DNA of 55,980 nt from Steroidobacteraceae bacterium (GTDB taxonomy: Bacteria; Pseudomonadota; Gammaproteobacteria; Steroidobacterales; Steroidobacteraceae). The stretch spans positions 1 to 55,980 of the forward strand of contig JBELAR010000001.1 in assembly GCA_049508555.1 (NCBI GenBank). The letters run 5' to 3'. Below, piece by piece: positions 1 through 20,458 of this stretch. The first letter of the stretch is position 1. The number at the start of each line of letters is the position of its first letter. Under the pieces are notes generated by a model. That model was not told the DNA's origin. It saw nothing but the letters and a program-made list of their open reading frames with translations, and did not search any database. Both the position numbers and the translations under genes were made by a program.

Positions 1-108
1 CGATGGTCGTATCTGATTGCCGATGAACGCTGGTTTCGAACCTGCACATCGTCACCCGGGCACGCCACCAGAGCGCCTGCCGATCTAGCGGTGCAGCATG
101 GAGATTGA
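1..108 (+). CDS. 3' end of an unidentified upstream CDS (partial, runs off the window start)
   Basis: Frame 1 is open from base 1 to TGA at 106-108 and overlaps the ATG at 98 by 11 nt, an operon-style junction. No recognisable motif in the 35 codons. Confidence 0.25.
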   Translation, partial: RWSYLIADERWFRTCTSSPGHATRAPADLAVQHGD

Positions 109-2461: not shown

Positions 2462-2510
2462 CGTTGCTCCAACATACCAGAGATCCTTGAGCTGTTGTGG
2501 TCACCGCGTC

Positions 2511-3332: not shown

Positions 3333-3355
3333 GCGCCACTTGGCCAAAATCTAGA

Positions 3356-4105: not shown

Positions 4106-5077
4106 ATGGGTGCGTCCGCCATGAGCCGGTGGTTACCAACAGCCTTGAAGCAGAAACTTCGAGCATTGCCGCAGTGGTCGGCGATCGCGTTGCGCGAGCC
4201 GCAGGCAGCCGTTGAAGTACGCATGTTCGCCGCCGGCGGCAATTTCGATGTGACACGTAACAGCGTTGTCGCAGCACTCAGGCCGTTGACCCTCGCGGTG
4301 GGTCTCGGCGAGCAGATCATCTCGACTATGAAAGAGGGCTCGGAGCCTGCGCTCCACTTTGTAGATCTGGAATCGCGGCACACGCTGGGAGTGCTGCATC
4401 TGCGCCAGATCCGGGATCCGAGCCTGGCGGCATCCCAAATCGGTTTGTTCGAAATTCGGCACGGAGCGCAGTATTGCGTTCGCTGGCCATATCGGCCTTG
4501 GAACCGCTGGTTGCAGAATCGCGCGATGCGGAAACATTCCGATCCGAACAATTTTTCGATGCCGCCTGCCGCGGTTCAACAGCTGATGATTTTCTATATT
4601 CGTCCGCGGCCGGTCGTTCTGGTTTCAGTGGACGATGGTCACCACAGCAACATCTTTCCGATGGATCTGATAGGTCACATTGCACCGGATTATTTCACGT
4701 TGGCACTTCGCAGCACGAGCCAGTCGATTGCGACGATGAAGACCGCGCGCCGAGTCGCGCTCTCGAGTATAGCCGCCCAGGATCGCGCTATTGCGTATCA
4801 GCTTGGTGCCCACCACAAGAACGTACAAGTCGAGTGGGATCGTCTCCCTTTCAGGATCCAGCGATCCAATAACTATGCTCTGCCTTGCCCGGAAACGGCG
4901 CTGGGAATTCGCGAACTCGATATCTTGAGTTTTGAGTCCATAGGATCTCACACCTTCTTCATCACGCGAATCGCGTCCGAGCGTTCGTTCAGAGACAGCC
5001 CACAGCTGTGTCATACCAGCGGCATCCACCAATATTTTAGATCTCGCAATGGAGGAGTGCTTCAGCTCGCGCCTTAG
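4106..5077 (+). CDS. hypothetical protein, possible flavin-reductase-like (FMN-binding split-barrel) domain
   Basis: ATG directly follows the TAA of the previous gene. 323 aa. 'PRPVVLVSVDDGHHSNIFPMD...FTLALRS...GSHTFFITRI' resembles the flavin reductase-like fold. Resemblance is weak. Confidence 0.45.
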   Translation: MGASAMSRWLPTALKQKLRALPQWSAIALREPQAAVEVRMFAAGGNFDVTRNSVVAALRPLTLAVGLGEQIISTMKEGSEPALHFVDLESRHTLGVLHLRQIRDPSLAASQIGLFEIRHGAQYCVRWPYRPWNRWLQNRAMRKHSDPNNFSMPPAAVQQLMIFYIRPRPVVLVSVDDGHHSNIFPMDLIGHIAPDYFTLALRSTSQSIATMKTARRVALSSIAAQDRAIAYQLGAHHKNVQVEWDRLPFRIQRSNNYALPCPETALGIRELDILSFESIGSHTFFITRIASERSFRDSPQLCHTSGIHQYFRSRNGGVLQLAP

Positions 5078-5128
5078 TTTCCGACATTCGGGTGCTTGCG
5101 ACTATCAGACTTAGCTGCGCTTGCAAAG

Positions 5129-6916: not shown

Positions 6917-6923
6917 GGGACAT

Positions 6924-8051
6924 TCATATCTGCTGGCGTTGCAGCAGATCCTGGTACATCGCATGCAGTTTTCGGCCGAGCGCAGTACAAGACAACTCCG
7001 CATCGAAATGCGCTCGTACCGCCTCACGTATTGTTGGCTGCGGCTTTGACGCCAGCGACAACAGAGCCTGGCACAACTCGCGCGGGTCGCCACACTGCCA
7101 CAGTGCCCCCACAATGCCGTCCCCGGTGAGCGAGCGAAACGATGGGATGTCAGTTACGACTGGCGGTAATCCGCAGGCGAGCGCCTCGATCAGAGAATAG
7201 CCGCTACCTTCCCGGTGACTGCCCAACACGAAGAAGTCGGCCGCCCGCATCAGTTGCTCGATTCTGTCATGGGGTACGCGGCCCAGCAGATGAACTCTGC
7301 CGCGCAATAGCGGATCGAGGGCAATTCGACGTTGAACCGCGTGCAGCAGCGGTGCAGTACCGAAGCAGCAATAAACCTGCAGATCCGGCAGCACGGGTGC
7401 AGCCTTGCTGATGCCCTCCAACATCGTGAGCGGATCCTTGTTGGCATCCAGATGTCCAACCCACAGTAGCAGCGGGCTGCCCTTCAGACCGGTCGCGCGG
7501 CGTGCTTCTTCCTTATCGCCCGGCGCGAAGCGACTGGTGGATTCAGGAATTTCATATACCTTTGTGCGCGGCTGTATGTGACCGGCAGTTACAAACGGCT
7601 GTGCCTGCCGCTTTGAACAGAATGCGATTCCCGACGCCACAGCTAGCCCGCGTCGCCATATTCGACGCCGCCACGGCCGTGGCGGTCGGTTTGCGTGATC
7701 CTGCAGCAGGAGCGGAATTCCCGTGGTGTCGGCTGCCAGGGACAGAACGTCGCGCGCGAAGCCGAGACCTTGTACGTGCAGCACCTCGGGAGCGATCTTG
7801 CGCAGCAGTTCGGCAAGCGCCCCGGCCGTGTCCCTCACGGTCGCGATGCCTCGGCCGAACGGCAGAAAATGGTAGCTCACGCCGTTGCGTATCAGGTGCT
7901 GCGAGTTGCGGCAAGCCTGTACGACTGAAATTCGGATGCCCGCGCGGGACGCGGCTTCAGCCACATCAACCAGAGTCGGCCAGTCGAGTAGAAGCTGCTC
8001 CGGGGCGCGCCCTTGAGGGTCGGCGAAGAAACTAATCTGGGCGACGTGCAA
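6924..8051 (-). CDS. glycosyltransferase, GT-B fold (GT4-like)
   Basis: 375 aa. C-terminal 'SHREGSGYSLIEALACGLPPVVTDIPSF' is the GT4 E-x7-E region. Confidence 0.8.
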   Translation of the reverse strand: MHVAQISFFADPQGRAPEQLLLDWPTLVDVAEAASRAGIRISVVQACRNSQHLIRNGVSYHFLPFGRGIATVRDTAGALAELLRKIAPEVLHVQGLGFARDVLSLAADTTGIPLLLQDHANRPPRPWRRRIWRRGLAVASGIAFCSKRQAQPFVTAGHIQPRTKVYEIPESTSRFAPGDKEEARRATGLKGSPLLLWVGHLDANKDPLTMLEGISKAAPVLPDLQVYCCFGTAPLLHAVQRRIALDPLLRGRVHLLGRVPHDRIEQLMRAADFFVLGSHREGSGYSLIEALACGLPPVVTDIPSFRSLTGDGIVGALWQCGDPRELCQALLSLASKPQPTIREAVRAHFDAELSCTALGRKLHAMYQDLLQRQQI

Positions 8052-8068
8052 CTTCGGCTACCTGTGCA

Positions 8069-9577
8069 TCAGAGGCCCGAAACGCGCGGATCCCACAGGC
8101 GGATGAAGCGCTTCGACCATTCGAGCTCCCATGGGCGCTCATATCGCTGACGTGTATAGCGCCACGATGCGAGCGTGCGCAGCGCCAACTTGCCCCAGGA
8201 TGGCGAGCGGACGTCCGTGATGGTCGGGAATCTACACCCGAGAACGGTCGTGAAATCGCGGATCCGACTGCGCAAACGCGGAGTGAGCCACGGTGTGTCG
8301 GTGTGGCACCAGTACCTGATCCATTGGGGTTGGGCCCACTCATCGGCGGTCGCTGGAAACGCCAGCGGCCTGCCGAAGCCGTCCCGCAGCGCGCTCACGG
8401 AACGCTCGACCTGCGCACTGTTGCTGCAGGGTGCCGGCGGCAGCGGTGCGTACACGTAGAGCATGATCTCCGTCTTCGGATGGATCCGCTTGATGTGACG
8501 GATAAACGCGAAGGTTTTTTCTGTTTCGCCCTCAGGGTCCTGCGGAGGCGCCAGCATGAACGACAATTCCGGAATCACTCCGTGGCGGCGGCACTGCTCG
8601 ACGGCTTCGAGAGTTTGATCGATTCGGGTGCCCTTGCGGACATCGTGCAGCAGCCAGTCGCTAGGGGATTCCGCGCCGATATAGGCCATCCGCAGCTGAC
8701 TCTTTTGGACCAGCGCCCAAGAACGCTCTGATAGATTCAACAGCGCGTCAGAGCGCGCAAAGCACCACCACGGCAACTGAAATTTCGCCAGTACCTCGAG
8801 CAGCGGCACCATGTCGACCTCACGATCGAAAAAATTATGGTCATAGAAATTAACCGAGTCGACTCCGTACTGCGCCGTCAGGAACTGCAGCTCCTGTTCG
8901 AGCCGCTCTGGCGCCGGCAGCGCAGTTTTGCCCCGAAACATGGCCGCCACGCCGCAGAAGGTACAGCGGAATCGGCAACCCAAAGCGGCCTGGTAACCGA
9001 TCGTGCGCCGCCCGAGATAGGTTCTGCCCAGATAGCGCAGCGGGTTCCCCAATCGCTCGTAGGGCAGCCTTCTCATAAGACCTGCCGTTGCAAACGCACG
9101 ATTCTGGTTATGGACGATTCGCTCCCCCGAGCGCCAGGACAGTCCCGGAATCGAAGCAAGCGCAGCGTCATCGCCGCAAAACAGTGCGTCCAGGATTTCG
9201 CAGAGCGTGGCCTCTCCCTGGCCTCTGATCGCATAGTCAACGTATGGCGTATTGAGACTGGCTTCGGCGCAGATGGTCGGATAGTGGCCGCCCCAGATGA
9301 TGGGTGTTGCCGGAAACCTCGTGCGGATAGCGCGCGAGACGGATATCGCCGTTCGAAGCTGTGGGCCTCCCATGACGCTGATACCGACTGCATCGACGCG
9401 TCCGCCCTCAAGGGTACGTATCGTGGTGGCGACGAAGTCCCGGTCGATATTGCCGTCGATGATGCTGGATTCGTACCTGCCGTCGAGCGACGCGGACAAA
9501 TTGAGCACCGCGAGCGGAAACCGGGCGCTGCGTCGCGACGTCATCGTCGGGTTGATCAGCAGGATGTGTCTGGACAT
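8069..9577 (-). CDS. B12-binding domain radical SAM protein
   Basis: 502 aa. N-terminal cobalamin-binding-like Rossmann region ('ILLINPT...VDAVGISVMGG...PIIWGGHYPT'), then CxxxCxxC 'CRFRCTFCG'. Confidence 0.85.
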   Translation of the reverse strand: MSRHILLINPTMTSRRSARFPLAVLNLSASLDGRYESSIIDGNIDRDFVATTIRTLEGGRVDAVGISVMGGPQLRTAISVSRAIRTRFPATPIIWGGHYPTICAEASLNTPYVDYAIRGQGEATLCEILDALFCGDDAALASIPGLSWRSGERIVHNQNRAFATAGLMRRLPYERLGNPLRYLGRTYLGRRTIGYQAALGCRFRCTFCGVAAMFRGKTALPAPERLEQELQFLTAQYGVDSVNFYDHNFFDREVDMVPLLEVLAKFQLPWWCFARSDALLNLSERSWALVQKSQLRMAYIGAESPSDWLLHDVRKGTRIDQTLEAVEQCRRHGVIPELSFMLAPPQDPEGETEKTFAFIRHIKRIHPKTEIMLYVYAPLPPAPCSNSAQVERSVSALRDGFGRPLAFPATADEWAQPQWIRYWCHTDTPWLTPRLRSRIRDFTTVLGCRFPTITDVRSPSWGKLALRTLASWRYTRQRYERPWELEWSKRFIRLWDPRVSGL

Positions 9578-9579
9578 GC

Positions 9580-10755
9580 TTATGCTGCCCGCCAGGTCAC
9601 ATTTACAAGCTCGAGACCCTCTGCGCTTGCGCTGGCGTTGGACAGAATCGCGGCCAGGCTGGTGTCAAGCATCTTCGTTCTGCCATCGACGCGCACTTCG
9701 ACCCAATGCGAGATAGGTGCCGTGCTCAGGGCGTAGTCTTTATCCCCGTAGCGTGCGATACCCGCCAGTAGCACGAGACGTACATCGGTGCGCCGTGCCC
9801 TCGCGAGCGGCATATTCGCGGGAAGGATCAAAATATCGGCGCGAGCTCCCGCACGCAGTGTGCCGCGATCGGACAGCCGCAATAGCCGCGCGCTGTGGTG
9901 AGTCACCAGCGATTGCAGCGTGGGATCATCTAACCGGCCCGCTTCTGCAGCGACCCCAAGCTCCTCGAGCAAGTCGCGCGCGCCACTCAAGCGCGAGTCA
10001 GTACCGAGTGCGACCCGCCCGGCTGCTAGCAGGTCGGTGATGTCCGCAGTCCTGCCGAATAATCGCAGATTCGAGGACGGACACCAGATAAGTCCCGCCC
10101 TGGCACGTTCGAGCCGCAATCGCTGTGCGCGGTCGAGGGCGACGCCGTGCACTATTAAGGTATTTGGCCCAAGGCAGCCAAGCGCATCGAGACGTTCAAA
10201 TTCATTCCCCGCCTCCTGGTCCAGCCCCTCAGCCGCGTGGATGATCCATGGCCATTCAGGGGGTGTGCTCTGATACACGCTGCGCACTTTCTGTTCGCCG
10301 TCCATGTACAAGGAGTGAGACCAGCCGTAATCAGTGACGACCCGCGTGGGAAAGCATGGATTCAACAAGTCTGGATACAGCGGGTCGTGGTGCGCGACGG
10401 TGGTGACGCCGCTCAACAAGTTCTTCATTCCACCTATAGCCAAACGCTCATCGCGAGGGACGGCGACACGCGCTTCGAATGCCGGATCGGATCCCCGACG
10501 CGTGTTGATATCTGCAATCCATTCGCGCACGTGACGATAGTGTGTAACCGATTCGAGGTCAGGCAGGTTATTAAGCTGCAAATGGTCATGTGCATTGATC
10601 AACCCCGGTAACAGCCGATCGCCCTGCAAGTCGATGACTCGATCGCCTGCATGGGGAGCCGCCCCCAACGCAGCAATAGATGAGCCGCGAATGCGCAAGG
10701 TGGTCGTATCACCGCCCATCTGAGCATTGATGAATGTCAGACCGTCGCGGAACAT
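9580..10755 (-). CDS. metal-dependent amidohydrolase family protein
   Basis: ATG at 10755, 7 nt after the upstream stop. HxH metal motif 'GLINAHDHLQLN'. Later 'IIHAAEG', 'VHGV' and 'GTDS' fit the amidohydrolase superfamily. Confidence 0.8.
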   Translation of the reverse strand: MFRDGLTFINAQMGGDTTTLRIRGSSIAALGAAPHAGDRVIDLQGDRLLPGLINAHDHLQLNNLPDLESVTHYRHVREWIADINTRRGSDPAFEARVAVPRDERLAIGGMKNLLSGVTTVAHHDPLYPDLLNPCFPTRVVTDYGWSHSLYMDGEQKVRSVYQSTPPEWPWIIHAAEGLDQEAGNEFERLDALGCLGPNTLIVHGVALDRAQRLRLERARAGLIWCPSSNLRLFGRTADITDLLAAGRVALGTDSRLSGARDLLEELGVAAEAGRLDDPTLQSLVTHHSARLLRLSDRGTLRAGARADILILPANMPLARARRTDVRLVLLAGIARYGDKDYALSTAPISHWVEVRVDGRTKMLDTSLAAILSNASASAEGLELVNVTWRAA

Positions 10756-10762
10756 CACGTTA

Positions 10763-11437
10763 TCAGCACTTGCGAGCGCGAACGACCAGCGCGATTGGCA
10801 GACCGTGCCATCGACGGTAGAACTCGTCCGATCCCGAAAACCGCTCCTGCAGCTCAAATCCCACTCGGATCTCATGGATCGCGTTTATTCTCAGATTGAC
10901 CGCTGCGGCTGCCTCCTGTTGTAACGACAGCTCGTAGCAATGGTGTGGCACTGCGAAGGTGCAGCCACTCTGGTCTTTGAAAGTACGCGGCAGCCCCGCA
11001 CGAGCCGCTTCGGGATGAAAATCCGAGTACAACAATGCGCCTCCCTGGCCGAGCACCCTGGCGACCTCAGCCATCCAGGGGCGGATGCTGGATGCGTGAC
11101 CCAGTGCAAGTCCCGATATCACGACGTCGAACGACTCGTCACCGAAGGGCAGATCCATCATGCTCGCACGCACTCGGCTTGCACCGGATACCTGCGCCAA
11201 CATGGGGCTACAGACATCCAAAGCGACAATGTGCGCGGCGTGTGTCTCGGTCAGTACTCGCGAATAGCGTCCGGTACCACAGGCGAGATCCAATGCCCGC
11301 CGACCCTCCACAGCGGGCCAATGCTTGACCATCGCCCGCTGCTCGGCTCGCATCAGCGGGTTGTGTGGGATCGGCGGGTACAGAGGCGCCCAACGCTCGT
11401 AGGCCGCAAGCGTCTCTACTGTGAGATTAGCGGTCAC
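10763..11437 (-). CDS. class I SAM-dependent methyltransferase
   Basis: Motif I 'ALDLACGTGRYS', then 'VALDVCSPML' and 'LGQGGALLYSDF'. Start set at GTG 11437, which forms a GTGA overlap with the upstream radical SAM stop. The ORF-track ATG at 11527 would overlap that gene by 94 nt. Confidence 0.75.
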   Translation of the reverse strand: MTANLTVETLAAYERWAPLYPPIPHNPLMRAEQRAMVKHWPAVEGRRALDLACGTGRYSRVLTETHAAHIVALDVCSPMLAQVSGASRVRASMMDLPFGDESFDVVISGLALGHASSIRPWMAEVARVLGQGGALLYSDFHPEAARAGLPRTFKDQSGCTFAVPHHCYELSLQQEAAAAVNLRINAIHEIRVGFELQERFSGSDEFYRRWHGLPIALVVRARKC

Positions 11438-12528
11438 ACAGTCGCCGACGACGCCGGTCCCCTTGTTCGGACCGAGGTCTCGATGTGGTCGGGATCTCGC
11501 CACAGCGTGCAAACGCAGGTCCTGCATTCGATACGCGCACCCGTCCGGATGGCCGTGCGCAGCCCCACCATGGAATTGCTGTTGAGCACAGCCGCAAGCT
11601 CACCGTCGTGTGCCGCGCCGGCGCCCGATATTTGAGCGGCGGGAGGTCCCGAAATAAAAAAGCACGGTTGCACGCGGCCACTCGCACCAATCACAGCGGA
11701 GAATTCCGGCGCGTTGCATCGAACCGGAGGGTACGTCCCCTGCCCTTGGATGGCGGCGAAGTATTGCAGGAGGCGCCGCAACTTCTGCGGGCTTTCTGCG
11801 ATGAACCCAGAGCGAAATTCCTCGGCATTATCCTGCTCCAGGGAACGCAAGACCTGGTCGAAAACCGGCAAATCCTCCGGGTGTAGCGCCAAATCAGCGC
11901 CAAAATCATCCGTGCGGCCGAAGGCGTGCGGGTTCGCTACGTCGACCGCGAGAAAGGAAACCTCGCGAGCGCCAAGCGCCTTCGTCAACGCGACGAAGCT
12001 CGGCAATTGCCGGTAGTTGGCACGCTGTAGTGTGACTCGAATGCTCGGTGGCAAGCCGTGGGCGCCCACCGCGCGAATGCCTTCGCAAACCTTATCGAAC
12101 GCGTCCAAACCGCGAATCGCCGCGTAGGTCTCGGAATCGGTTCCGTCCAGCGACGCTGTGATGGAATCGAACAGCTCGGCCGCGCGGGGCGCGTGCTTGG
12201 CTAAGGCCAGACCCGAAGTCAACAGCCATACCTGATGACCGTTCGCCCGCAGCAACTGCGCAATCGGCGCCCAGTCGGGATTGAGTAGCGGTTCGCCGCC
12301 GGATAGGAGCACCACCTGGGTTCGTAGTCGAGCCAGACTGGGCAGCAAACGCGCCACCGCCGCCAGGTTCATGTCGTTGCGACCATGCCGCCAGTAGTCA
12401 CACGAGACACAACGCGAGTTGCAACGCTCACTCACATACAGCGTAACCAGGGGCAGCCGGCGAAGGGGCAGCGGGGCCGCGGCTGGGTCAGCGCGCAAAT
12501 GGCAACTCCCGGATTCGAGCATCGTCAC
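11434..12528 (-). CDS. radical SAM protein with Cys-rich C-terminal (SPASM-like) extension
   Basis: 'ERCNSRCVSCDYW' is a CxxxCxxC cluster, followed by 'LLSGGEPLL'. C-terminal Cys pattern 'VRCNAP...VQPCFF...ECRTCVC'. GTG start at 12528 (ATG alternative at 12522), 12 nt after the anti-sigma stop. Confidence 0.85.
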   Translation of the reverse strand: MTMLESGSCHLRADPAAAPLPLRRLPLVTLYVSERCNSRCVSCDYWRHGRNDMNLAAVARLLPSLARLRTQVVLLSGGEPLLNPDWAPIAQLLRANGHQVWLLTSGLALAKHAPRAAELFDSITASLDGTDSETYAAIRGLDAFDKVCEGIRAVGAHGLPPSIRVTLQRANYRQLPSFVALTKALGAREVSFLAVDVANPHAFGRTDDFGADLALHPEDLPVFDQVLRSLEQDNAEEFRSGFIAESPQKLRRLLQYFAAIQGQGTYPPVRCNAPEFSAVIGASGRVQPCFFISGPPAAQISGAGAAHDGELAAVLNSNSMVGLRTAIRTGARIECRTCVCTLWRDPDHIETSVRTRGPASSATV

Positions 12529-12540
12529 ATAGACGAGTAG

Positions 12541-13221
12541 TCATGGTCGTGAAGCGCGTAACCCTGTATCGATAGGCTCGGCGAGGCGGACGTGTGGGTT
12601 CCTGCGCAACTCGCGCAGCGCCCCCTCGGTCGCGGCAGCGGTTGCATCGGTGATGGGCGCCAGCGACCAGATTCCGGCATCCCCGGGTCCGGCGACCACC
12701 TGCAGATGCGCGGCGTTGAGCAAGACTCGTAGCTGCTCGAGTGTCATGCCTGGCGCCAGCACGACTCGAATGGTAGCGGCAGCACTCACATGATCGGGGT
12801 CAGACAACGTGTGGTAGGCGCTCGGCGGCTGCGATGCAACCCTGTTGATCCGGGATGCCGCAGAAAGAGCCCCCAGCGCCACGGCCTCAACCACCACCGC
12901 GGCCACGAGCCACCGGGTTGTGGCATGCATGGACGCACCCGCTCGCTCCGGGTCGGGCTCGCGCCGGCGAGGAGGGAACCTCTCCCCGTTGTCGAGGCGC
13001 GCGCATAGGCTGTGCCAGCCCTTCTCAACGTCGCCAAGGTCAGCCTGCGGAGCACTCAACGCAGCCTGTACGCGCTCCTGAAACGCCAGTTCCGCACGGC
13101 AATCCGCGCAAAGGCGCAGGTGTTCCTGCGCTGCGCGGTATTCCGCCTGTGTCACGCTGTGGTTGACGATCCACGGAATCATTTCCCAGGCCTGCTGATG
13201 GGCTCGATTGAGGTCACTCAT
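12541..13221 (-). CDS. anti-sigma factor (zf-HC2 type), single-pass membrane protein
   Basis: N-terminal 'HLRLCADC' zinc-finger motif. One hydrophobic helix 'WLVAAVVVEAVALGALSAA'. Overlaps the upstream sigma gene by 8 nt. Paralog of 15198..15959. Confidence 0.8.
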   Translation of the reverse strand: MSDLNRAHQQAWEMIPWIVNHSVTQAEYRAAQEHLRLCADCRAELAFQERVQAALSAPQADLGDVEKGWHSLCARLDNGERFPPRRREPDPERAGASMHATTRWLVAAVVVEAVALGALSAASRINRVASQPPSAYHTLSDPDHVSAAATIRVVLAPGMTLEQLRVLLNAAHLQVVAGPGDAGIWSLAPITDATAAATEGALRELRRNPHVRLAEPIDTGLRASRP

Positions 13222-13813
13222 GGTTCTGCTCCTGATTCGGACCCCCGCCCAGAGCGGGCAGCAGATTACGTAACTTGATTCGTGCTTGAAACATGCGTGC
13301 CTTGACGGTGTTAATGGGGCAATTCATGATTGTGCCGATCTCTTCACACGAATGGCCCATGAAGTAGGCCAATTCCATGGTCGCGCGTTGCTCGGTTGGC
13401 AACGAGCGCAGCCCGCTCTCAAGCCACTCGCGCAGTTCCTCGACGGCTTGCGTGCTATCGCTAGCGGAACCGGTTTGGAGACTCTCAAACCCGCGCTCGG
13501 CTGGCAGCGGAGCGCTGCGTCGCAGCGCTTTAAGCGCGCAGCGCCAAGCGATGCCCATGATCCATGTGGAGGCTTGCGAGTCGCCCCGGAACCGCCCGGC
13601 CTTCTGCCAGACGATCCAGAAGGTATCGTTGATCGCCTCCTCGAGCGCATCACTTCTGGGGCTCAGACGCGACAGGAAGCGGCCCAATCGGCTGTGATAG
13701 TTGAAATAGAGCTGCTCGAGCGCCCGTCGCTCCCCTGCCGCGATCCGCCGCAACAATTCGCAATCGCGGCCATCGTCGCGCACCAATCCAGGATCCTGGC
13801 TACTCGCTTCCAT
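13214..13813 (-). CDS. ECF-type RNA polymerase sigma-70 family factor
   Basis: ATG at 13813. Region 2 'EAINDTFWIVWQKAGRF...STWIMGIAWR'. Region 4 HTH 'HSCEEIGTIMNCPINTVKARMFQARIKL'. Confidence 0.9.
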   Translation of the reverse strand: MEASSQDPGLVRDDGRDCELLRRIAAGERRALEQLYFNYHSRLGRFLSRLSPRSDALEEAINDTFWIVWQKAGRFRGDSQASTWIMGIAWRCALKALRRSAPLPAERGFESLQTGSASDSTQAVEELREWLESGLRSLPTEQRATMELAYFMGHSCEEIGTIMNCPINTVKARMFQARIKLRNLLPALGGGPNQEQNHE

Positions 13814-13926
13814 AGGCACAAATTCGCTCCTGCCAGTGCGTGCCGGGAACGTCAGCGAAGGTTTTAACGGCCTGCGAAGAACCGACAAAAAAGTTGAGCT
13901 TGCCTCGATTGAGCGCTGTGGCCGCG

Positions 13927-15201
13927 CTAGTTCTGCGCCAAGTTCCCAGCACAACCCGACTTGTGCAGGAGCAACCCCAGCGCCGCACAGGCATTCGGCA
14001 CGGAGGGTCGCGAGGCAGGCGTGTCCACGCCAGCCGAGGCGGTCAGAAGCATCTGCGCTTCCTGCCCACTCAGGCGACTGCGTTGCGATCGAAGCAGCGC
14101 TATGATCCCGGTAATTTCGGCTGTCGCGAGCGAGCTGCCCGAATAGAAGTCGTAGCGGCCCTCTGGGGCCAGCGACACCACATCGCGCCCCGGCGCCTCC
14201 ACCACACCGGCACTCATATGGTTAGCTTCGATAGCATCTGCGGCAATCACACCCGTTATGTCGGTTGGAAAGGAGTTTCGTAGCCCGTCCGACGGCACGG
14301 CTCCCACCACGATAATGCCAGCGTCCAACCCCCGCCGAACGAGCCGGGTAAGCAATGGATCGCTCGGGCCGCCGAGACTTAAGTTAATGATGTCCGCGCG
14401 CGCCTCAATCGCCGCGGCAATCGCCTGGGCCAGTGTGAATGTATTGCACACGGCCCCGATGCCGATGGCCGATGCGCGCCAGCACGCCTTGTAGGCCAGC
14501 AACGAAACATCCGGCGCAATGCCGACGATGCCGATGCCGTTGTTCGGGACCGCCGCAATCACGCCGGCCACTGCCGTGCCGTGCGCATCGGTGCGAAAGG
14601 ACTGGGTATCGTTGTCGACAAAATTGCGTGAAGCAATCGTGGCCGGGAGATCCGGATGATCCGTATCCACTCCGGTATCGATCACCGCCACCCGGACTCC
14701 GGCTCCCCGACTTAAGGCCTGAGCGTCCGCGATACTCATTTGCTGCACGTCGCGTTGCAGTTGCGCATACGGGTCGTTGTAGCCGCCGGCAGCAGTTTCG
14801 AAATTGAGCAACGGCTGCGCCGACTCGACCCGAGCATCGTGGGCCAGGACCGCGAGCAACCGCTGCTGGTCCATGTCCTCGGACAACTCATACACAAGGC
14901 AGTGCACATCAAGCAGGGCAATAGGCCAGCTGGCACTCTCACGTAATCGGTAATCCCTCGCCAGCGCACGACTCACCGTTCGCGCCACGCCTCCAGCCAA
15001 GTAGGGGCCGACGCCATCGTAGCCACGGGACGTAGAAGCGGCCCGAGCATGCGGCAAACTCACGGGATTGCGGACGGTGACCACGATATAGCGCTGCGGC
15101 GATGCGCGCGCCGCAAGCGACAGCGTTGCGCTCGAGCGCAGCGACTGACCCGATGTGCACGCCATCAGGCAGAGCGCGAGCGGGCCGGCAAACCATCTCA
15201 C
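13927..15201 (-). CDS. S8 (subtilisin-like) serine peptidase, probable lipoprotein
   Basis: Catalytic triad contexts 'VAVIDTGVD', 'HGTAVAGVIAA' and 'SGSSLATAEITG'; also 'INLSLGG'. N-terminus 'LALCLMAC' is lipobox-like. GTG start forms a GTGA overlap with the anti-sigma stop. Confidence 0.88.
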   Translation of the reverse strand: MRWFAGPLALCLMACTSGQSLRSSATLSLAARASPQRYIVVTVRNPVSLPHARAASTSRGYDGVGPYLAGGVARTVSRALARDYRLRESASWPIALLDVHCLVYELSEDMDQQRLLAVLAHDARVESAQPLLNFETAAGGYNDPYAQLQRDVQQMSIADAQALSRGAGVRVAVIDTGVDTDHPDLPATIASRNFVDNDTQSFRTDAHGTAVAGVIAAVPNNGIGIVGIAPDVSLLAYKACWRASAIGIGAVCNTFTLAQAIAAAIEARADIINLSLGGPSDPLLTRLVRRGLDAGIIVVGAVPSDGLRNSFPTDITGVIAADAIEANHMSAGVVEAPGRDVVSLAPEGRYDFYSGSSLATAEITGIIALLRSQRSRLSGQEAQMLLTASAGVDTPASRPSVPNACAALGLLLHKSGCAGNLAQN

Positions 15202-15959
15202 CTGTCGCCACCCGCTTCGTTCACCGCAGGCTCAACAAACATCACCCGTGTATCCGTACGCAGCGCCGCAATGGCCGCGTCCAGACGCTCCGTCGCCGAA
15301 CGTGGATCCGAAAAAGCCAGGGTGTAGGCGCCCGCATCGCTCGGACCCCGGATGATGGTCAGGGCGTTCTGCGTGAGCAGCAAGTTGAGCGCGTCCAGCG
15401 ACATGCCGGGCGAGAAGACTGCGCGGATACGCGATCCAAGTGCCACCGGCACAGGAACCGAAGTCAACGTCGTGTACCGCGGTGCTCGGTCCTGGAGTGG
15501 GGGTGAGCGATGATACAGCGACGTGCCCACGACGCCGAGGGCAATGGACTGCACGAGGGCCGCAGCAGCGAGCCAGTGCGCAGCGCCAAAGCGGCGCGCA
15601 GGCACTCCCGGGGGGGGCGCCGAGCTGAGGGGGACCGCGCGAGCCTCGCGCTCGAACTCGTCAATGCGGGCCAGCGTCTTAGCCAGGCCCGGTTGCGGTG
15701 CGTATTCCAGACTGGGCTCTGGTTTCAACAGCGTGCGCAGAGCGCGTTCACGGGCCACATCGTCGCGACAGGTCGCGCAGCGCTCCAGGTGACGCGCCAC
15801 GCGCGCGGCATCGCTCGCGCTCAGTCGCCCGGTCACATGCCAAGGCAACAGCCGTGCGGCCTCCTCCTCACAGCGGCTGTCTTCCGGATATTTATTCAGG
15901 GCCGTTCTCCCTACCCGACGCCGAGCCGGCCAGAATCGTCCGCAGCTTGCGCCGCGCAT
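15198..15959 (-). CDS. anti-sigma factor (zf-HC2 type), single-pass membrane protein
   Basis: 'HLERCATC' motif and TM 'WLAAAALVQSIALGVVGTSL'. The C-terminal domain aligns with that of 12541..13221. Start uncertain: ATG at 15959 overlaps sigma by 68 nt, and the true start may lie near 15899. Confidence 0.75.
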   Translation of the reverse strand: MRGASCGRFWPARRRVGRTALNKYPEDSRCEEEAARLLPWHVTGRLSASDAARVARHLERCATCRDDVARERALRTLLKPEPSLEYAPQPGLAKTLARIDEFEREARAVPLSSAPPPGVPARRFGAAHWLAAAALVQSIALGVVGTSLYHRSPPLQDRAPRYTTLTSVPVPVALGSRIRAVFSPGMSLDALNLLLTQNALTIIRGPSDAGAYTLAFSDPRSATERLDAAIAALRTDTRVMFVEPAVNEAGGDR

Positions 15960-16497
15960 TGAACATACGTGTCTTTACGGTGTTGACTGGGCATTCCATG
16001 ATCTCGGCAATCTCCTCGCACGAGTGATCAAGGTAATAGGTGAACTCAAGCACCAAGCGCTGCTCGAGCGGCAACTGCGCAAGCCCCGAATCGAGCAGCT
16101 GCTGCTGCTCGAGCCCCTGGGCACTATCGCTGGCGGTGGCTTCGGATTCCGCGATCTCCATTCTCATCGCGCGCTCGTGGGTGCTGGCACGGCGAATCAT
16201 GTTCAGGGCGCGGCGATAGGCAATACCCATGATCCAGGTCGATACGCGCGAGGCGTTGCGAAACTCGCCGGCACGCTGCCAGACGACCCACAGGGTGTCG
16301 TTGATGACTTCCTCCGCGTCCTCATACCGAGGCATCAGTCGGGTCAGAAACCGTGCTAGGCGGCGGTGATAGCGCAGATACAGCTCACGGAACGCATCCC
16401 GGTTTCCCGCGCTGACTCGGCACAGCAGCGCGCGCTCCAGTTCGCTACCGATTGGTCCGGCTGCGCCCGGGTCGAAACTAGAATCACCGTGTTTCAA
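15892..16497 (-). CDS. ECF-type RNA polymerase sigma-70 family factor
   Basis: TTG start at 16497 with GAGG 7 nt upstream. 'EVINDTLWVVWQRAGEF...STWIMGIAYR' and 'HSCEEIAEIMECPVNTVKTRMFNARRKL'. Paralog of 13214..13813. Confidence 0.9.
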   Translation of the reverse strand: MKHGDSSFDPGAAGPIGSELERALLCRVSAGNRDAFRELYLRYHRRLARFLTRLMPRYEDAEEVINDTLWVVWQRAGEFRNASRVSTWIMGIAYRRALNMIRRASTHERAMRMEIAESEATASDSAQGLEQQQLLDSGLAQLPLEQRLVLEFTYYLDHSCEEIAEIMECPVNTVKTRMFNARRKLRTILAGSASGRENGPE

Positions 16498-16605
16498 TGG
16501 CTTACCTCATCCTCCGGGCAGCTGAAATGGATTTGCCCAACGGTATGTACCGGGAGAGGCTCGGCCGGTTCATTGCCGTGGTACGGCGCGCGCGACCCAA
16601 TAGCC

Positions 16606-17448
16606 TCAGAAGCGCACCACCGCCGACAAAACCCAAGTGCCGTTCGCACTGGCGTCCCCATACAGGCGGGCCACGGTAGGATCGGCAATAAAGTGAGTCA
16701 GATCGAGGCTCACTCGTCGATAGATGTACTGGATCCCCGCATCGGCCGCCCAATAGCGGACGCCGAAGACGCGCTGCAGATCGTAGTAGCCGGCGCCAGC
16801 CTCGATGGCTAACCCTAGGGGTAGCGGCCACCGACCGGTCAGCTCATAGGCCAAGCTCGGGCGCCGGTCTGCAAAGCCCAGATTCGAGTACAGTGTGATG
16901 TCGGGCTGGTACGAGATCGTCGCAACCAGACGATCCAGGTAGCTCGCCGACAGCGTCAACTCATCATAGTTATAGTGCGCGGGCCGCGGATCGTCCAGGT
17001 ACAGGTAGCGGGTATAGACGAAGCTGGCATTGAAATCACCGCCCAACGGACGGCTAACGCCAGCGTAGAGATTCAGTTCCTGCGCCGATCGTGCGCCGGG
17101 ATACAGGTCAACATTGGAACCCCAAGCGCCGGCAAACCAACCCTGGGGACTGAAGTAATTCCCGCCCAGCTGCAGCGCCCCGCGATCGTAGGTCTGCGAA
17201 ACGCCTCGGAAGACGTAGTCCGTGGTCGCAGTCACTGAGGCGCTCCACGGCCCCTCGGCAGGGTAAGCCAGGAGCGGCGCGCTGGCCAGCAGCATGGCCT
17301 GGATGAGCCGCACGCCACTGCGCCCGATGCGCAGCCGACCGACCAACGTAACGGTCTGGCCTGATTCCAAACCGCTCACCGCCCTTGTTCTCATCGCGGC
17401 CAGTATGGCTGTGTCGCTGCCGGTTTCAATAACGCACTGCACTCTCAT
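16606..17448 (-). CDS. outer-membrane beta-barrel protein (TIGR02001/Gcw_chp-like)
   Basis: 'SASVTATTDYVFRGVSQT' plus alternating aromatic/Gly strands ending in '...WVLSAVVRF' (C-terminal Phe). A likelier start is GTG 17313, which gives the signal peptide 'RLIQAMLLASAPLLAYPA'. The 5' limit is uncertain. Confidence 0.7.
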   Translation of the reverse strand: MRVQCVIETGSDTAILAAMRTRAVSGLESGQTVTLVGRLRIGRSGVRLIQAMLLASAPLLAYPAEGPWSASVTATTDYVFRGVSQTYDRGALQLGGNYFSPQGWFAGAWGSNVDLYPGARSAQELNLYAGVSRPLGGDFNASFVYTRYLYLDDPRPAHYNYDELTLSASYLDRLVATISYQPDITLYSNLGFADRRPSLAYELTGRWPLPLGLAIEAGAGYYDLQRVFGVRYWAADAGIQYIYRRVSLDLTHFIADPTVARLYGDASANGTWVLSAVVRF

Positions 17449-17606
17449 CAGTTAATCGCTGCACCTCTTCAAGAAACCCCTCCAGCCGCGAGGCTACGAC
17501 AATGCAAGGGCATCTACTTCGAGCTGACCCGCGGCCTTTTCGGTAAGCATCGGGCCGCTGCTGCATTCGCGCGATCAGCCACGACAGACGCGCCGGCTAC
17601 TGGCCT

Positions 17607-17786
17607 CTAGATATCCTCCGTTGTCGTACCCGAATGGACAAATGCTCGGTTGGTCGCCGCTCTCGGCCAGGCCCCCGCGTGCATTCGCTGTCGAAAGTCC
17701 CGTTTTGGCTCCGGGACGAATAAACCAGGCTGTTCCCAGGCTGCGAAGTGTCCGCCCTTGGGGAGCTTGTCGTAGTGGATCCCGGA
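17607..17786 (-). pseudogene. 3' stump of an alpha/beta-hydrolase (epoxide-hydrolase-like) gene
   Basis: Only the C-terminal motif 'IHYDKLPKGGHFAAWEQPGLFVPE..RDFR' is present. Similarity stops where the transposase remnant begins (about 17790). No N-terminal catalytic part. Confidence 0.45.
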
Positions 17787-17792
17787 GGCGCT

Positions 17793-18172
17793 ATGAACAC
17801 AAAAATGCCGCACACGGCGCGGGCCGAACTCGCCAATGCTATTCGCCGACGTTATCGAGCGGCGACGGGCAAAAAGAAACGCAAGATCCTGGATGAGTTT
17901 GTCGCGACCACGGGCTATCACGAGAAATCGGCGATCCGGGTACTGAACCGTGCAGTGTTCCCGGAATACCGAACCCGCACTCGCCCGTCGCTCTACGATG
18001 AAGCCGCGCGTGCGCGCTGATTGTGCTGTGGGAGGCTTCCGATCGGGTCTGTGGCAAGCGCCTGCGCGCCTTGGTGCCCATCCTGCTGCCTGCTCTGGAG
18101 CGCAATGGACACCTAAGGCTCGATGAGGCGATCCGCTCGAAGGTTCTGGCAATGAGTGCCGCGACGATCAAC
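17793..18172 (+). mobile_element. IS transposase remnant (N-terminal HTH part only; frameshifted and 3'-truncated)
   Basis: 'MPHTARAELANAIRRRYRAATGKKKRKILDEFVATTGYHEKSAIRVL' continues in another frame as 'LIVLWEASDRVCGKRLRALVPILLPALERNGHL...LAMSAATI'. Stop at 18018-18020, with the frame change in the GC run at about 18005-18020. No DDE catalytic region follows. IS family not assigned. Confidence 0.6.
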
Positions 18173-18536
18173 TTAGGTACGCAGAGGAGGCACCGCCGCC
18201 CTAAGCATCTCGACGTAGTACGCCTCAACGTTCCCGCGCTTCTGGTCCTCCCGGCTGAGCGCCTCGGCAGGCCAGAAATGGCGAGGTTCGCCGAGTGGGA
18301 ACACAACGGTTTCTGAATCCACAGCGATGAACGGACGGAATAGGTCGAATTGCTCGCGGACGTGCGAATTATGATGACTTACGACAGCCCTGCACGTTTC
18401 TGTTACACCCGAATGACCTTCAAGAAATCGGTCAAGTGCCGCAATCAGAGCAGTGGCTCTCGCTCATTCGGCCCGTTCCTTTGGCATAAATGTTTGAGAA
18501 TACGCTGGCCGTCATAGGCCATTCATGACAGGCGGC

Positions 18537-18968
18537 TCAGGTTCGCGGGCGGTCCCATTGCCGGTTTGCAGCAGGGATAAAGCATCCCTGGACAATGCGC
18601 CAGCCCAAGTTAAGTCCCCACACCAGAAGTACGACAAAAAGCAGGGCCAGCCAAAGCGGATGCAACAGGCGAACTAGGTAAATGAACGCCACCATGTAAA
18701 TCGTGATGCTAACTACGAACGACAAGTAAGCGGCAGGCGCCCACGGACGCATCCGCCACAGTGCGAATGCGCAGACGAGTGTAGTCGCGCAGTAGAATGC
18801 GCCCACGACTAGAAGTATCCAACCTGTGAGCACTGGATCCATGCGTAGTAAGTGTGGCGCCACGGGTAGCGGTCGTCCCCAAGGGTTGTCCAAGAGTCCG
18901 CCGACCGCGGACAGCCCGAGGATCAGAAGTACCAGAGAAAGACGAGAGATAGCACGAGGTCTTTGCAT
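18537..18968 (-). CDS. hypothetical small integral membrane protein (about 4 TM helices)
   Basis: 143 aa, four long hydrophobic stretches, no recognisable motif. Lies in a visibly AT-richer stretch. Confidence 0.5.
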   Translation of the reverse strand: MQRPRAISRLSLVLLILGLSAVGGLLDNPWGRPLPVAPHLLRMDPVLTGWILLVVGAFYCATTLVCAFALWRMRPWAPAAYLSFVVSITIYMVAFIYLVRLLHPLWLALLFVVLLVWGLNLGWRIVQGCFIPAANRQWDRPRT

Positions 18969-19119
18969 GTGCGCGCCGCCGATTCCGCCGGGCTTATCTG
19001 TCGGCCTAATAACCTAATCGGATGTTCACGTTGGCCCACAGAACAGCAGACGCTCGCTATGGACCGCTTTGGGGTCGAGAGCTGCCGATTGAGTCGGCGC
19101 GAGGGCCAGCCGAGTCGAC

Positions 19120-19455
19120 TTAGCTCTCAACGAGCGCAATAATTTTCGCGCGTACGGTTGCTAACTCGCCGGGCTTCGCCTTTCCCTTGTACTTTGCCTT
19201 ACGCTCCACCCAATCAAGACTTTTCACTTGATCGGCAAGCACTGCGCTTGGTCGGTTGCCGGCTAGAAGCACCTCGAACGGATAACCCTTTACCTGAGTG
19301 GTCATCGGACAGCAGAGCATAAGGCTGGTTTTGCGGTTGTAGGCGGCGGGGCTGATGACCAGCGCCGGTCTGTGGCCCGCCTGCTCATGGCCCGCTTGGG
19401 GGCTGAAACGCAACCACACAATGTCGCCGGCCTCTGGCACGTAGCGAGGAGCCAC
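19120..19455 (-). CDS. mazF: type II toxin, MazF/PemK family endoribonuclease
   Basis: 'PEAGDIVWLRFSPQAGHEQAGHRPALVISP..YN...LMLCCPMTTQVKGYPFEV' is typical of MazF/ChpA. The GTG start overlaps the antitoxin TAG by 1 nt. Confidence 0.9.
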   Translation of the reverse strand: MAPRYVPEAGDIVWLRFSPQAGHEQAGHRPALVISPAAYNRKTSLMLCCPMTTQVKGYPFEVLLAGNRPSAVLADQVKSLDWVERKAKYKGKAKPGELATVRAKIIALVES

Positions 19456-19697
19456 TAAAGCGATTCCCTCCCGACCGGATTGCCGAAATCCACGCCGCCC
19501 TGCAGGTTGTCGGCGGTGATGCCTGCGAGCAGCTGGGCAAGATCCAATTTGCCCGTTCGAATCGGCTTTATGACGATCTGTCCGCCCTGTTCGCGGACAT
19601 CGACTGTCTCATCAAGATTGAGACGAGCAGCCTGCATGATACCGCTCGGAATTCGAACAGCTGCGCTATTGCCCCACTTCTTGACGACTACACGCAC
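19455..19697 (-). CDS. mazE: type II antitoxin, MazE/AbrB (SpoVT) family
   Basis: 'VVKKWGNSAAVRIPSGIMQAARL' swapped-hairpin AbrB-type motif. 80 aa. GTG start with GGAAG upstream. Confidence 0.88.
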   Translation of the reverse strand: MRVVVKKWGNSAAVRIPSGIMQAARLNLDETVDVREQGGQIVIKPIRTGKLDLAQLLAGITADNLQGGVDFGNPVGRESL

Positions 19698-19727
19698 GGC
19701 GCACTTCCTGATCCTAGTAACCTTGAT

Positions 19728-19765
19728 AGTTTACCCGACTGCAGGCAGTGTGTCTACAATGTAGA
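19728..19765 (-). promoter_or_regulatory. candidate sigma70 promoter of mazEF with overlapping palindromic operator
   Basis: On the minus strand: TAGACA (19756-19751), 17 nt, TAAACT (19733-19728). The perfect palindrome TCTACA-A-TGTAGA (19753-19765) overlaps the -35. Confidence 0.35.
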
Positions 19766-20039
19766 TACATAATGGGCTACTCCCGGCTGGGCCATCACTT
19801 TCTCCCGGCGCAAATCCGGTGCGATGCGAAGCCAAGGGGTTGGTCTCAAGGAACAGGAAGCGGAGAGCAGCGACTTCAATCGACGAGGTGCCCACGCTGC
19901 CGCAGTCTCTGGAGTGCGCGGGGCACGCTTTGGGGCGGGTCGCGCGCCTATTCGCGGTACAGTGTCCCCAGCTGTCCCCAGAAGCTGTCACTGGCGGTGG
20001 CGCCCGACGCACAACTACCTGAAAACTGGTATGAAAGTC

Positions 20040-20058
20040 TGGCGGAGAGAGAGGGATT
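20040..20058. repeat. 19-nt direct copy of the tRNA-Ser 3' end (att-like scar)
   Basis: tggcggagagagagggatt at 20040-20058 is identical to 20245-20263, which is the CCA end, acceptor 3' strand and half the T-arm of the tRNA below. Confidence 0.7.
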
Positions 20059-20244
20059 GTTCGCGGCTACGCCGCTCATCCCTCGCTTGACGCTCGGGAC
20101 CGCCGGCGCCAGAGCGCGCCGGCGTCCTTCGCCGCCGCGACCGCGGCGGCTCGTCGAACCCGATTGACTATGTTCGAGGGATCGAATCCCATCGCGACAA
20201 CATGAGCTGGATAGCGATTCCTGTGTGGAAGCCGCTCAAAATAT

Positions 20245-20335
20245 TGGCGGAGAGAGAGGGATTCGAACCCTCGAAGGGCTTTTGACCCTTACACCCTTAG
20301 CAGGGGTGCGCCTTCGACCACTCGGCCATCTCTCC
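20245..20335 (-). tRNA. tRNA-Ser (anticodon GCT)
   Basis: The reverse complement folds as acceptor GGAGAGA/TCTCTCC, D-arm GCCGAGTGGTCGAAGGC, anticodon stem-loop CACCC-CTGCTAA-GGGTG, a long variable arm, T-arm GAGGGTTCGAATCCCTC, and an encoded CCA. Confidence 0.93.
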
Positions 20336-20458
20336 GTCACGCGCCAGTCCTGCCGACACGCGGCGCAATCATACGCAAGGGGGTCTGGGAGGGCAAAGCG
20401 CACGTCGCGCGCCGGCTCGAACTGGTAAAACGGCGGTGCGCGCGCCTGCCGCGCGGCC

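Follow-up and report, generated by a model that had tools for sequence, protein, structure and literature searches.

A lipid-anchored S8 subtilase and prodomain-like anti-sigma domains in a tandem ECF sigma factor locus: a candidate dedicated site-1 protease

Why would the gene for a subtilase lie between two extracytoplasmic function (ECF) sigma factors and their anti-sigma factors? The question is raised by five co-directional genes, sigma1, anti-sigma1, S8, sigma2 and anti-sigma2, on the minus strand (12541-16497) of a 55,980-nucleotide stretch of DNA from a Steroidobacteraceae bacterium (GenBank assembly GCA_049508555.1, contig JBELAR010000001.1), which we call the window. The original prediction, made from the letters of this stretch, had described two sigma/anti-sigma pairs around a lipobox-bearing S8 subtilase, and all five genes are indeed found at these coordinates. 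Part of an answer comes from the anti-sigma factors themselves. Profile matches and a structure model indicate that both carry, at the C-terminus, a predicted periplasmic domain homologous to the N-terminal prodomains of subtilases. The genes and domains that carry the argument are these:

16606-17448, minus strand: outer-membrane beta-barrel of the TorF/Gcw_chp family (Pfam PF09694; TIGR02001 at 90 bits, above cut-off)
15892-16497, minus strand: ECF sigma1, 201 residues, TTG start
15198-15959, minus strand: open reading frame of anti-sigma1; from the orthologous start 15198-15899, 233 residues (zf-HC2, AlphaFold2 (AF2) model, start-codon comparison)
15462-15476, minus strand: linker motif Y-x-T-L-(S/T), here YTTLT, in anti-sigma1; candidate site-1 cleavage site
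15225-15431, minus strand: periplasmic domain of anti-sigma1, residues 157-225, beta-alpha-beta-beta-alpha-beta, predicted local distance difference test (pLDDT) score above 90
13927-15201, minus strand: S8 pro-subtilase lipoprotein, 424 residues, GTG start; Peptidase_S8 at 111 bits (Pfam)
13214-13954, minus strand: open reading frame of ECF sigma2; 13214-13819 from GTG (about 202 residues from GTG 13819, 200 from ATG 13813)
12541-13221, minus strand: anti-sigma2, 226 residues, same architecture as anti-sigma1
12802-12816, minus strand: linker of anti-sigma2, YHTLS, same motif
12574-12774, minus strand: prodomain-like domain of anti-sigma2, residues 150-216, aligning with the anti-sigma2 homologue P0321

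The two anti-sigma factors share what had been read from their sequences: an H-x3-C-x2-C motif (HLERCATC and HLRLCADC, one in each), a single transmembrane helix and a common C-terminal module, which falls within the 220 residues over which they are 30% identical (E 1e-16). The zf-HC2 family matches anti-sigma1 above its cut-off (25.3 bits), anti-sigma2 below it (19 bits, cut-off 22.2) and 62 of the 63 members of the anti-sigma family. A profile of that family matches ChrR (3e-6), RslA and RsiW, which identifies the N-terminal domain as a class I anti-sigma domain. In the AF2 model of anti-sigma1, for which 59 homologues were aligned, a helical N-terminal domain leads into a transmembrane helix (residues 104-130, WLAAAALVQSIALGVVGTSLY), after which come a disordered linker and a folded domain at the C-terminus. 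This arrangement suggests a single-pass topology with the C-terminal domain outside the cytoplasm.

What is this C-terminal domain? Searched against the PDB with Foldseek, the anti-sigma1 domain has as its top match the prodomain of unprocessed pro-subtilisin E (3whi), and five entries (3whi, 3cnq, 1spb, 1scj and 9fid) contribute 8 prodomain chains, of subtilisin, PC1/3 or furin, to the best 18 matches. Among these chains are the prosegments 3cnq_P, 1spb_P and 1scj_B and, in 9fid, the PC1/3 prodomain bound to furin; stand-alone prodomain chains give target-normalised template modelling (TM) scores of 0.6-0.64. The likeness extends to sequence. PF22148 (Fervidolysin N-terminal prodomain), whose cut-off is 21 bits, scores 32.8-32.9 bits in two anti-sigma2 homologues, P0321 and P0322; in P0321 the match covers residues 148-207, which is exactly the C-terminal domain. 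The corresponding domain of anti-sigma2 aligns with residues 147-207 of P0321 (E 4e-10). PF22148 is matched at E≤1 by 23 of the 63 family members and is the sole recurrent family besides zf-HC2.

The domain is widespread. Among 1.84 billion proteins, a search with a profile restricted to this domain yields 4,452 cluster representatives at E≤1e-3, of which 1,150 reach E≤1e-10. Most of the best 150 matches are proteins of 200-260 residues that carry the domain at their extreme C-terminus; the shorter entries appear to be fragments. Compared with PDB sequences, the domain profile has as its best match a serine-proteinase fragment with prodomain-like sequence, which is not significant (E 0.28).

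The neighbouring S8 is itself predicted to be a pro-subtilase. The Asp-His-Ser triad (D175, H207 and S357, in DTG, HGT and GSS(L)A motifs) and the oxyanion Asn, N273, are invariant in 57 homologues and three distant orthologues. The same is true of Cys15 in the lipobox, LMAC, which confirms the lipobox originally assigned to this protein; the N-terminus reads MRWFAGPLALCLMAC-TS, and the Thr at +2 suggests sorting to the outer membrane. S8 has an N-terminal prodomain of its own at about residues 36-136; in the AF2 model (pTM 0.78) its beta-alpha-beta-beta-alpha-beta fold occupies residues 38-130 and packs on the catalytic domain, and the best Foldseek matches of the model are unprocessed pro-subtilisin E (E 1e-18, 403 columns), then pro-Tk-subtilisin. 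A direct Pfam scan of this prodomain (E≤10) gave no informative match. From its residues and its modelled fold, S8 is predicted to be a catalytically competent, lipid-anchored zymogen in the periplasm. Because the lipid is on the prodomain end, processing would release the catalytic domain from its anchor. S8 proteins of distant modules align end to end with that of the window; identity is 38-46%, and the alignment extends over the prodomain region and the N-terminal Cys. Homologues of more than 64% identity are abundant in Steroidobacteraceae metagenome-assembled genomes and in soil and peat metagenomes, and the window sequence itself recurs in peat and soil metagenome assemblies.

A possible site of action lies in the linker. 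The Y-x-T-L-S motif is present in 115 of 122 anti-sigma factors, invariably about 91 residues before the C-terminus, in a segment that is modelled as disordered between the membrane helix and the domain. The pro/mature junction of S8 reads QPLLxF(E/D)TA(A/S) in 53 of 57 S8 proteins, and linker and junction both conform to aromatic-x-Thr-(Leu/Ala)-(Ser/Ala). The motif is thus a lead for the site-1 cleavage site, with the cut expected at or beside Y142-x-T-L in anti-sigma1 and Y136-x-T-L in anti-sigma2. After cleavage at this point, about 12-15 residues would protrude into the periplasm, and RseP-type enzymes accept short periplasmic stubs of this kind.

How general is the pairing of S8 with such an anti-sigma factor? 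We compared homologous loci, which are labelled L003 and so on. Nine genome loci and two additional contigs share a unit that consists of the TorF/Gcw_chp barrel, sigma1, anti-sigma1 and S8; within this set, a second pair and radical S-adenosylmethionine (SAM) genes follow only in the closest relative, L010. S8 lies directly downstream of the anti-sigma gene in L003-L012 and L016, and the barrel gene lies upstream of the sigma gene in L003-L008, L010 and L011. Other orders occur: the barrel follows S8 in L012 (sigma, anti-sigma, S8, barrel), a radical-SAM cluster follows S8 in L016 (barrel, sigma, anti-sigma, S8, cluster), and in Paraburkholderia phosphatilytica one gene of unknown identity separates the sigma/anti-sigma pair from a convergent S8 gene. 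Scanning metagenomes with relatives of anti-sigma2 as seeds yielded 80 loci, which were mapped by tblastn. Among the distant members of this set, whose anti-sigma is at most 42% identical, S8 directly follows the anti-sigma gene in 37 of the 38 loci with at least 300 nucleotides of downstream sequence, and the exception has little sequence left past the anti-sigma; the barrel gene is upstream in all 14 distant loci with enough flank. Linkage of S8 to the prodomain-bearing anti-sigma is therefore nearly universal. The four-gene unit is the real entity, a widespread and presumably envelope-signalling module of which the window holds one canonical copy, and the tandem pairs are a lineage-specific elaboration. 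The idea of duplicated modules bracketing the protease accordingly holds in the window but does not describe the core of the system, being confined to the closest relatives (L010, L018, L019 and L041).

The second pair has a history of its own. We defined a sigma2 clade by anti-sigma factors 47-88% identical to anti-sigma2. Its typical locus holds a YceI gene, sigma2, anti-sigma2, a convergent HprK-related kinase/ScmC-like gene, a B12-radical-SAM gene, an NTP_transf_5 gene and a methyltransferase gene. By these sequence comparisons, sigma2 and anti-sigma2 belong to a sub-clade that appears to have lost its own S8 and barrel. The prodomain-like domain is nevertheless among the best-conserved parts of the anti-sigma in this S8-less clade. 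S8 stands beside a sigma2-type pair in three arrangements: the tandem form of the window, L016, and L042/L043. In L042 and L043, sigma1 and anti-sigma1 are cleanly deleted, which makes these loci a natural variant. Both (in L043 at 2889-6630) retain a sigma1-type promoter and a remnant of the sigma1 start directly before S8, and their barrel and S8 genes are divergent to sigma2/anti-sigma2. This suggests either that S8 works with a sigma2-type anti-sigma or that sigma2 reads a sigma1-type promoter.

These observations lead us to propose, tentatively and at a little less than even confidence, that S8 docks on the decoy prodomain of the anti-sigma and cuts the anti-sigma as a dedicated site-1 protease, possibly serving both anti-sigma factors. 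Mature S8 would dock on the decoy much as it does on its own prodomain and would cut the exposed Y-x-T-L-S linker some 12-15 residues outside the membrane, after which a general RseP-type site-2 protease and cytoplasmic proteases would free the sigma factor. With S8 encoded in the sigma1 operon, the result would be positive feedback. The primary signal would be whatever governs how the lipid-anchored S8 zymogen matures, when it is released or where it resides, and the barrel may take part in this control. The same S8 would probably also act on anti-sigma2, tying the adjacent biosynthetic cluster to the same signal. That one S8 may serve two anti-sigma factors is suggested because the domain is kept in the S8-less sigma2 clade and by the arrangements in L042/L043 and L016; action in trans on the S8-less sigma2 pairs is assumed. 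The original prediction had itself suggested S8 action on the periplasmic anti-sigma domains. The prodomain homology of the module and the almost invariant linkage of S8 give that part strong, independent backing; the mechanism itself is an inference.

Several points weigh against this proposal. E-values from Foldseek reach only about 0.02, and the fold is widely shared, RRM, ACT and S6 structures being interleaved among the matches. The window's own anti-sigma domains have no PF22148 match in a direct Pfam scan (E≤10), so that their membership in this family is transitive and structural. Aligned with hhalign, the anti-sigma domain and the prodomain of S8 itself match weakly (P 2e-4, 31 columns, helix 2 and strand 4); the domain would thus be an old relative rather than a recent copy of the neighbouring prodomain. 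Across the family, the tail past the last strand can be as short as about 2 residues or exceed 10. In most sigma2-clade loci no S8 lies within 6-8 kb. Finally, co-translation of a site-1 protease and its substrate would call for a further gating step. Because of the variable tail length, we rejected as a general feature a model in which the anti-sigma tail plugs the S8 active site in the manner of a cleaved subtilisin propeptide.

S8 starts at a GTG that overlaps the stop codon of anti-sigma1 (GTGA), which bears out the translational coupling that had been read from the sequence; S8 also precedes sigma2, as had been described. The orthologous start of anti-sigma1 (15899) overlaps the sigma1 stop by 8 nucleotides. 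The gaps first reported, 108 nucleotides from the barrel stop to the sigma1 start and 113 nucleotides from the S8 stop to the sigma2 ATG, are correct, and the conserved start of sigma2 is more likely GTG 13819, which has AGGAG 7 nucleotides upstream and is kept in L010.

One codon sets the window apart from its relatives. The orthologous start codon of anti-sigma1 (15897-15899, minus strand) is CTG in the window and ATG in all 7 relatives with a recovered start region, where it sits in ATGAATAA/ATGAATGA, overlapping the sigma1 stop, after a GGAGA Shine-Dalgarno sequence. The CTG is not an assembly error, since the same sequence occurs on contigs from four independent peat and soil runs. Starting from the next TTG would cost 17 conserved N-terminal residues. 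The CTG start may lower the synthesis of anti-sigma1 relative to sigma1.

The two sigma factors align end to end, as had been noted, with 51% identity over 191 residues (E 8e-64) and with all of the peptides quoted in support. The similarity within the sigma pair and within the anti-sigma pair far exceeds what chance would give. Both match Sigma70_r2 and Sigma70_r4_2 above the Pfam cut-offs, sigma1 also matches Sigma70_ECF, and TIGR02937 gives 84 bits for sigma1 and 65 bits for sigma2 (cut-off 42.9). With sigma2 and sigma4 domains only and about 200 residues, both fit the ECF group (group 4). The nearest solved relatives of sigma1 are AlgU, RpoE and SigK. Among NCBIfam models the best match is PRK12515, whose 126 bits are below its cut-off of 236. 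A co-transcribed cognate anti-sigma and an autoregulated promoter with AAC in its -35 element are marks of ECF sigma factors. Here the anti-sigma gene overlaps the sigma stop, and AAC-bearing motifs are conserved upstream of the sigma gene in many loci; from this conservation we predicted two promoters:

16543-16572, minus strand: sigma1-type ECF promoter, TGAACC-N15-GGTACATAC, conserved upstream of sigma1 in 8 loci
13840-13863, minus strand: sigma2-type ECF promoter, AAACC-N15-GGCAC(GCAC), conserved in L010

Upstream of sigma1 in all relatives the consensus is TGAACC-N15-GGTAC(A/C)TAC, and sigma1 is probably autoregulated from this promoter. No second match to the sigma1 motif exists in the window, even allowing 3 mismatches. 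The sigma2-type motif, (A/C)AACC-N15-GGCAC, also precedes sigma genes across the wider family, and it fronts sigma2-clade sigma genes, YceI genes and biosynthetic operons in L010 and L014-L016. A search with the 15-position sigma1 motif at up to 3 mismatches does not return the sigma2 promoter, which therefore differs from it at 4 positions or more. Since the sigma2 type is the family-wide one, sigma2 would have kept the ancestral specificity while sigma1 diverged. Such divergence of promoter sequences would be the expected outcome of a duplication that has to avoid cross-talk.

Between S8 and sigma2, no terminator was evident in a consensus scan or by RNA folding (z -0.6). The spacer (13868-13926, minus strand) carries a T-run, CTCAACTTTTTTGTCGG, upstream of the sigma2 promoter; it is conserved in L010, and no convincing hairpin was found at it (fold z-score -0.6). 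Candidate roles for the T-run are those of a weak terminator, an UP-like element or a regulator site.

In relatives, a further gene bears a sigma1-type promoter, ATAGAACC-N15-GGTACTCAT. It encodes a TIGR03118-family lipoprotein of 397 residues, beta-propeller-like, and lies convergent just beyond S8 in L003 (8232-9489), L004, L005, L006 and L008, and near the module in L051, L063 and L077. From this promoter match, the lipoprotein is likely a member of the sigma1 regulon in these relatives. The window lacks this gene; there, the position after S8 is taken by the sigma2 pair and the cluster.

What would sigma2 control? A biosynthetic cluster of about 12.5 kb (window 1-12528, genes on both strands) follows anti-sigma2, and 12 nucleotides separate the anti-sigma2 stop from the start of its first radical-SAM gene. 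Six genes nearest to anti-sigma2 were assigned with Pfam and NCBIfam:

11434-12528, minus strand: radical-SAM/SPASM protein, ScmE/F-like
10763-11527, minus strand: SAM methyltransferase
9580-10875, minus strand: amidohydrolase
8069-9577, minus strand: B12-radical-SAM protein
6924-8051, minus strand: family 4 (GT4) glycosyltransferase
5129-7114, minus strand: ABC exporter

The genes from 5129 to 12528 are probably the sigma2 regulon, and related clusters adjoin sigma2-clade pairs in many loci. In total the cluster has two to three SAM methyltransferases and two GT4 proteins, besides a flavin-reductase-like protein and an NTP_transf_5 nucleotidyltransferase (98-1360); a candidate sigma2-type promoter lies at 39-63. 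In relatives, an HprK-related kinase/ScmC-like gene is an additional member of the cluster. For the radical-SAM cluster no gene of a precursor peptide was identified, and no systematic search for one was made.

A YceI gene stands directly upstream of sigma2 across L020-L049. In the two loci checked, L014 (6656-7289) and L015 (6645-7285), it has its own sigma2-type promoter. This points to the periplasmic YceI protein, which would bind lipids or isoprenoids, as a regular member of the sigma2 regulon.

On the other side of the module, between the barrel and csrA/alaS, lies a stretch of lower GC content (17450-20340, 0.59). It contains short open reading frames (17748-18316) without a Pfam match, which on visual inspection look to us like transposase remnants, a MazE/MazF toxin-antitoxin pair (19120-19697) and a tRNA-Ser(GCT) gene (20245-20335); in L010 the trp operon precedes the barrel gene instead. 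An island that is mobile or has been rearranged may thus make up the left 20 kb of the window, beside the tRNA gene.

Could the same data mean something else? In the main rival reading, the sign of the interaction would be reversed, with the decoy prodomain inhibiting S8 or tethering it at the inner membrane as an I9-type inhibitor, or with bound S8 shielding the anti-sigma against general proteases as RseB shields RseA. We consider this unlikely, and equally so its homeostat version, in which the module gauges free S8 or the demand for it, unbound anti-sigma is degraded and sigma1 makes more S8. Prodomains inhibit their cognate subtilases tightly (the complexes 1spb, 1scj and 3cnq are among our Foldseek matches), the coupling of anti-sigma1 to S8 suggests stoichiometric production, and S8 already has a prodomain of its own, all of which would suit a homeostat. 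The conserved disordered linker, however, resembles the S8 processing junction and fits cleavage better, the S8-less sigma2 pairs would go unprotected unless S8 acts in trans, and a tail as variable as the C-terminal one could not serve generally to plug the active site. S8 might also be a mere output of the regulon, an envelope quality-control or nutrient protease, next to a domain that senses something else or is a generic ferredoxin-like fold or a relic. Operons of sigma, anti-sigma and effector are common in ECF systems, and this reading would sit easily with the weak Foldseek E-values, the common fold and the failure of the window domains to match PF22148 directly. We find it improbable, since the linkage of S8 in 37 of 38 loci together with prodomain homology by sequence in 23 of 63 proteins would then be a striking coincidence, and since L043 keeps S8 and barrel beside sigma2/anti-sigma2 after loss of the sigma1 pair.

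The two other readings concern what S8 and sigma1 do for the biosynthetic cluster, and both had been raised by the original prediction. In a two-tier cascade, sigma1 would turn on sigma2 by read-through or cross-recognition, and sigma2 would then turn on the biosynthetic genes, an arrangement compatible with S8 as site-1 protease. The missing terminator between S8 and sigma2, the AACC-N15-GG(T/C)AC shared by both promoter types and the sigma1-type promoter kept before S8 in L043, although sigma1 is gone from that locus, would all allow it. As it was stated, the cascade finds no support, because sigma2 has a conserved promoter of its own, of the CAACC-N15-GGCAC kind, that differs from the sigma1 type in the positions counted above. 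This ancestral-type promoter also drives YceI and cluster operons in loci without a sigma1 pair, and most sigma2-clade pairs are not beside a sigma1 operon. Read-through may occur, and overall we rate a cascade as quite unlikely. It is far harder to believe that the radical-SAM cluster makes a ribosomal peptide whose leader peptidase or maturation protease is S8. S8 does adjoin radical-SAM/SPASM, B12-radical-SAM, methyltransferase and ABC exporter genes in the window, L010, L016, L085, L087 and L094, and NCBIfam reports a weak similarity to PatA/PatG-type proteases. Yet the S8 module occurs with no biosynthetic cluster nearby in L003-L008 and L011, most clusters of the sigma2 clade have no nearby S8, and the protease is a periplasmic lipoprotein with its own prodomain that always comes after the anti-sigma; the failure to identify a precursor gene, in the absence of a systematic search, points the same way.

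How does the proposed site-1 protease compare with known systems? Like sigmaE-RseA-RseB/DegS/RseP of E. coli and sigmaW-RsiW/PrsW of B. subtilis, the module has an ECF sigma, a single-pass anti-sigma with a class I domain and a probably autoregulated operon, and here too a periplasmic first cut followed by intramembrane proteolysis would be expected. In contrast to DegS, an S1C enzyme, and PrsW, the proposed site-1 enzyme is an S8 subtilase; its gene belongs to the operon, with translational coupling to that of the presumed substrate, and the sensor domain is homologous to the protease's own prodomain. We know of no described anti-sigma with a sensor domain of this kind. The domain shares its fold with subtilase propeptides and I9-type inhibitors (the BPN'/E prosegment, PC1/3, furin and fervidolysin PF22148, which homologues match) and, like the propeptides, ends in a ...V-x-(F/L)-(A/V)-E-P strand. 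Unlike them, it is C-terminal in a membrane-anchored regulator rather than N-terminal in a protease, and its tail is of variable length.

If the model holds, there is also a parallel with the SREBP/ATF6 pathway, in which S1P (SKI-1, a subtilisin/kexin-type S8 enzyme) and then S2P, a homologue of RseP, release a transcription factor: in both cases a first cut by an S8 enzyme would license a cut by the S2P family. We have no evidence for common descent of the pathways, and here the substrate is an anti-sigma that would be recognized through a decoy prodomain. The conserved barrel gene recalls FecA-FecR-FecI and SigX-CfrX-CmpX-OprF (ECF102), in which an outer-membrane protein gene is conserved beside an ECF sigma/anti-sigma pair (for ECF102, PMC7826278). 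The barrel of our module is, by comparison, a small TorF/Gcw_chp protein and not a TonB-dependent transducer or OprF. The anti-sigma is of the zf-HC2 type, with a subtilase as obligatory partner; Pfam and NCBIfam find no FecR domain in either anti-sigma, which sets the locus apart from FecR-type cell-surface signalling. We found no description of a subtilase or a prodomain-like domain linked with an anti-sigma in the open-access literature, and the main text of ECF classification 2.0 (PMC7826278) names no S8-linked group.

We therefore rate the system as a known kind, ECF signalling by regulated proteolysis, with the sensor-protease pairing as its novel part. It is conceivable, though we hold it with some doubt, that it represents a proteobacterial module family with a dedicated subtilase site-1 protease, docking through decoy prodomains, and one protease for two paralogous anti-sigma factors with diverged promoters, one of them governing a radical-SAM cluster. 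Read in this way and clustered at 50% identity, the family would exceed 1,000 protein clusters, for the most part from bacteria of soil and peat.

The known site-1 mechanisms are few (DegS, PrsW, Prc, signal peptidase and autoproteolysis), and each exposed a new sensing principle; for most ECF groups, to our knowledge, signal perception and the first-cut protease are unknown. If our proposal is true, a protease and its pseudo-prodomain would form a new, highly specific and modular sensing principle, a bacterial counterpart of the eukaryotic S1P/S2P logic. A large family of hypothetical proteins annotated as 'zf-HC2 domain-containing' would become interpretable, and the module would be a source of orthogonal protease-gated sigma switches for synthetic biology. 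For uncultured soil Gammaproteobacteria, S8 activity would then offer a handle for waking silent radical-SAM clusters.

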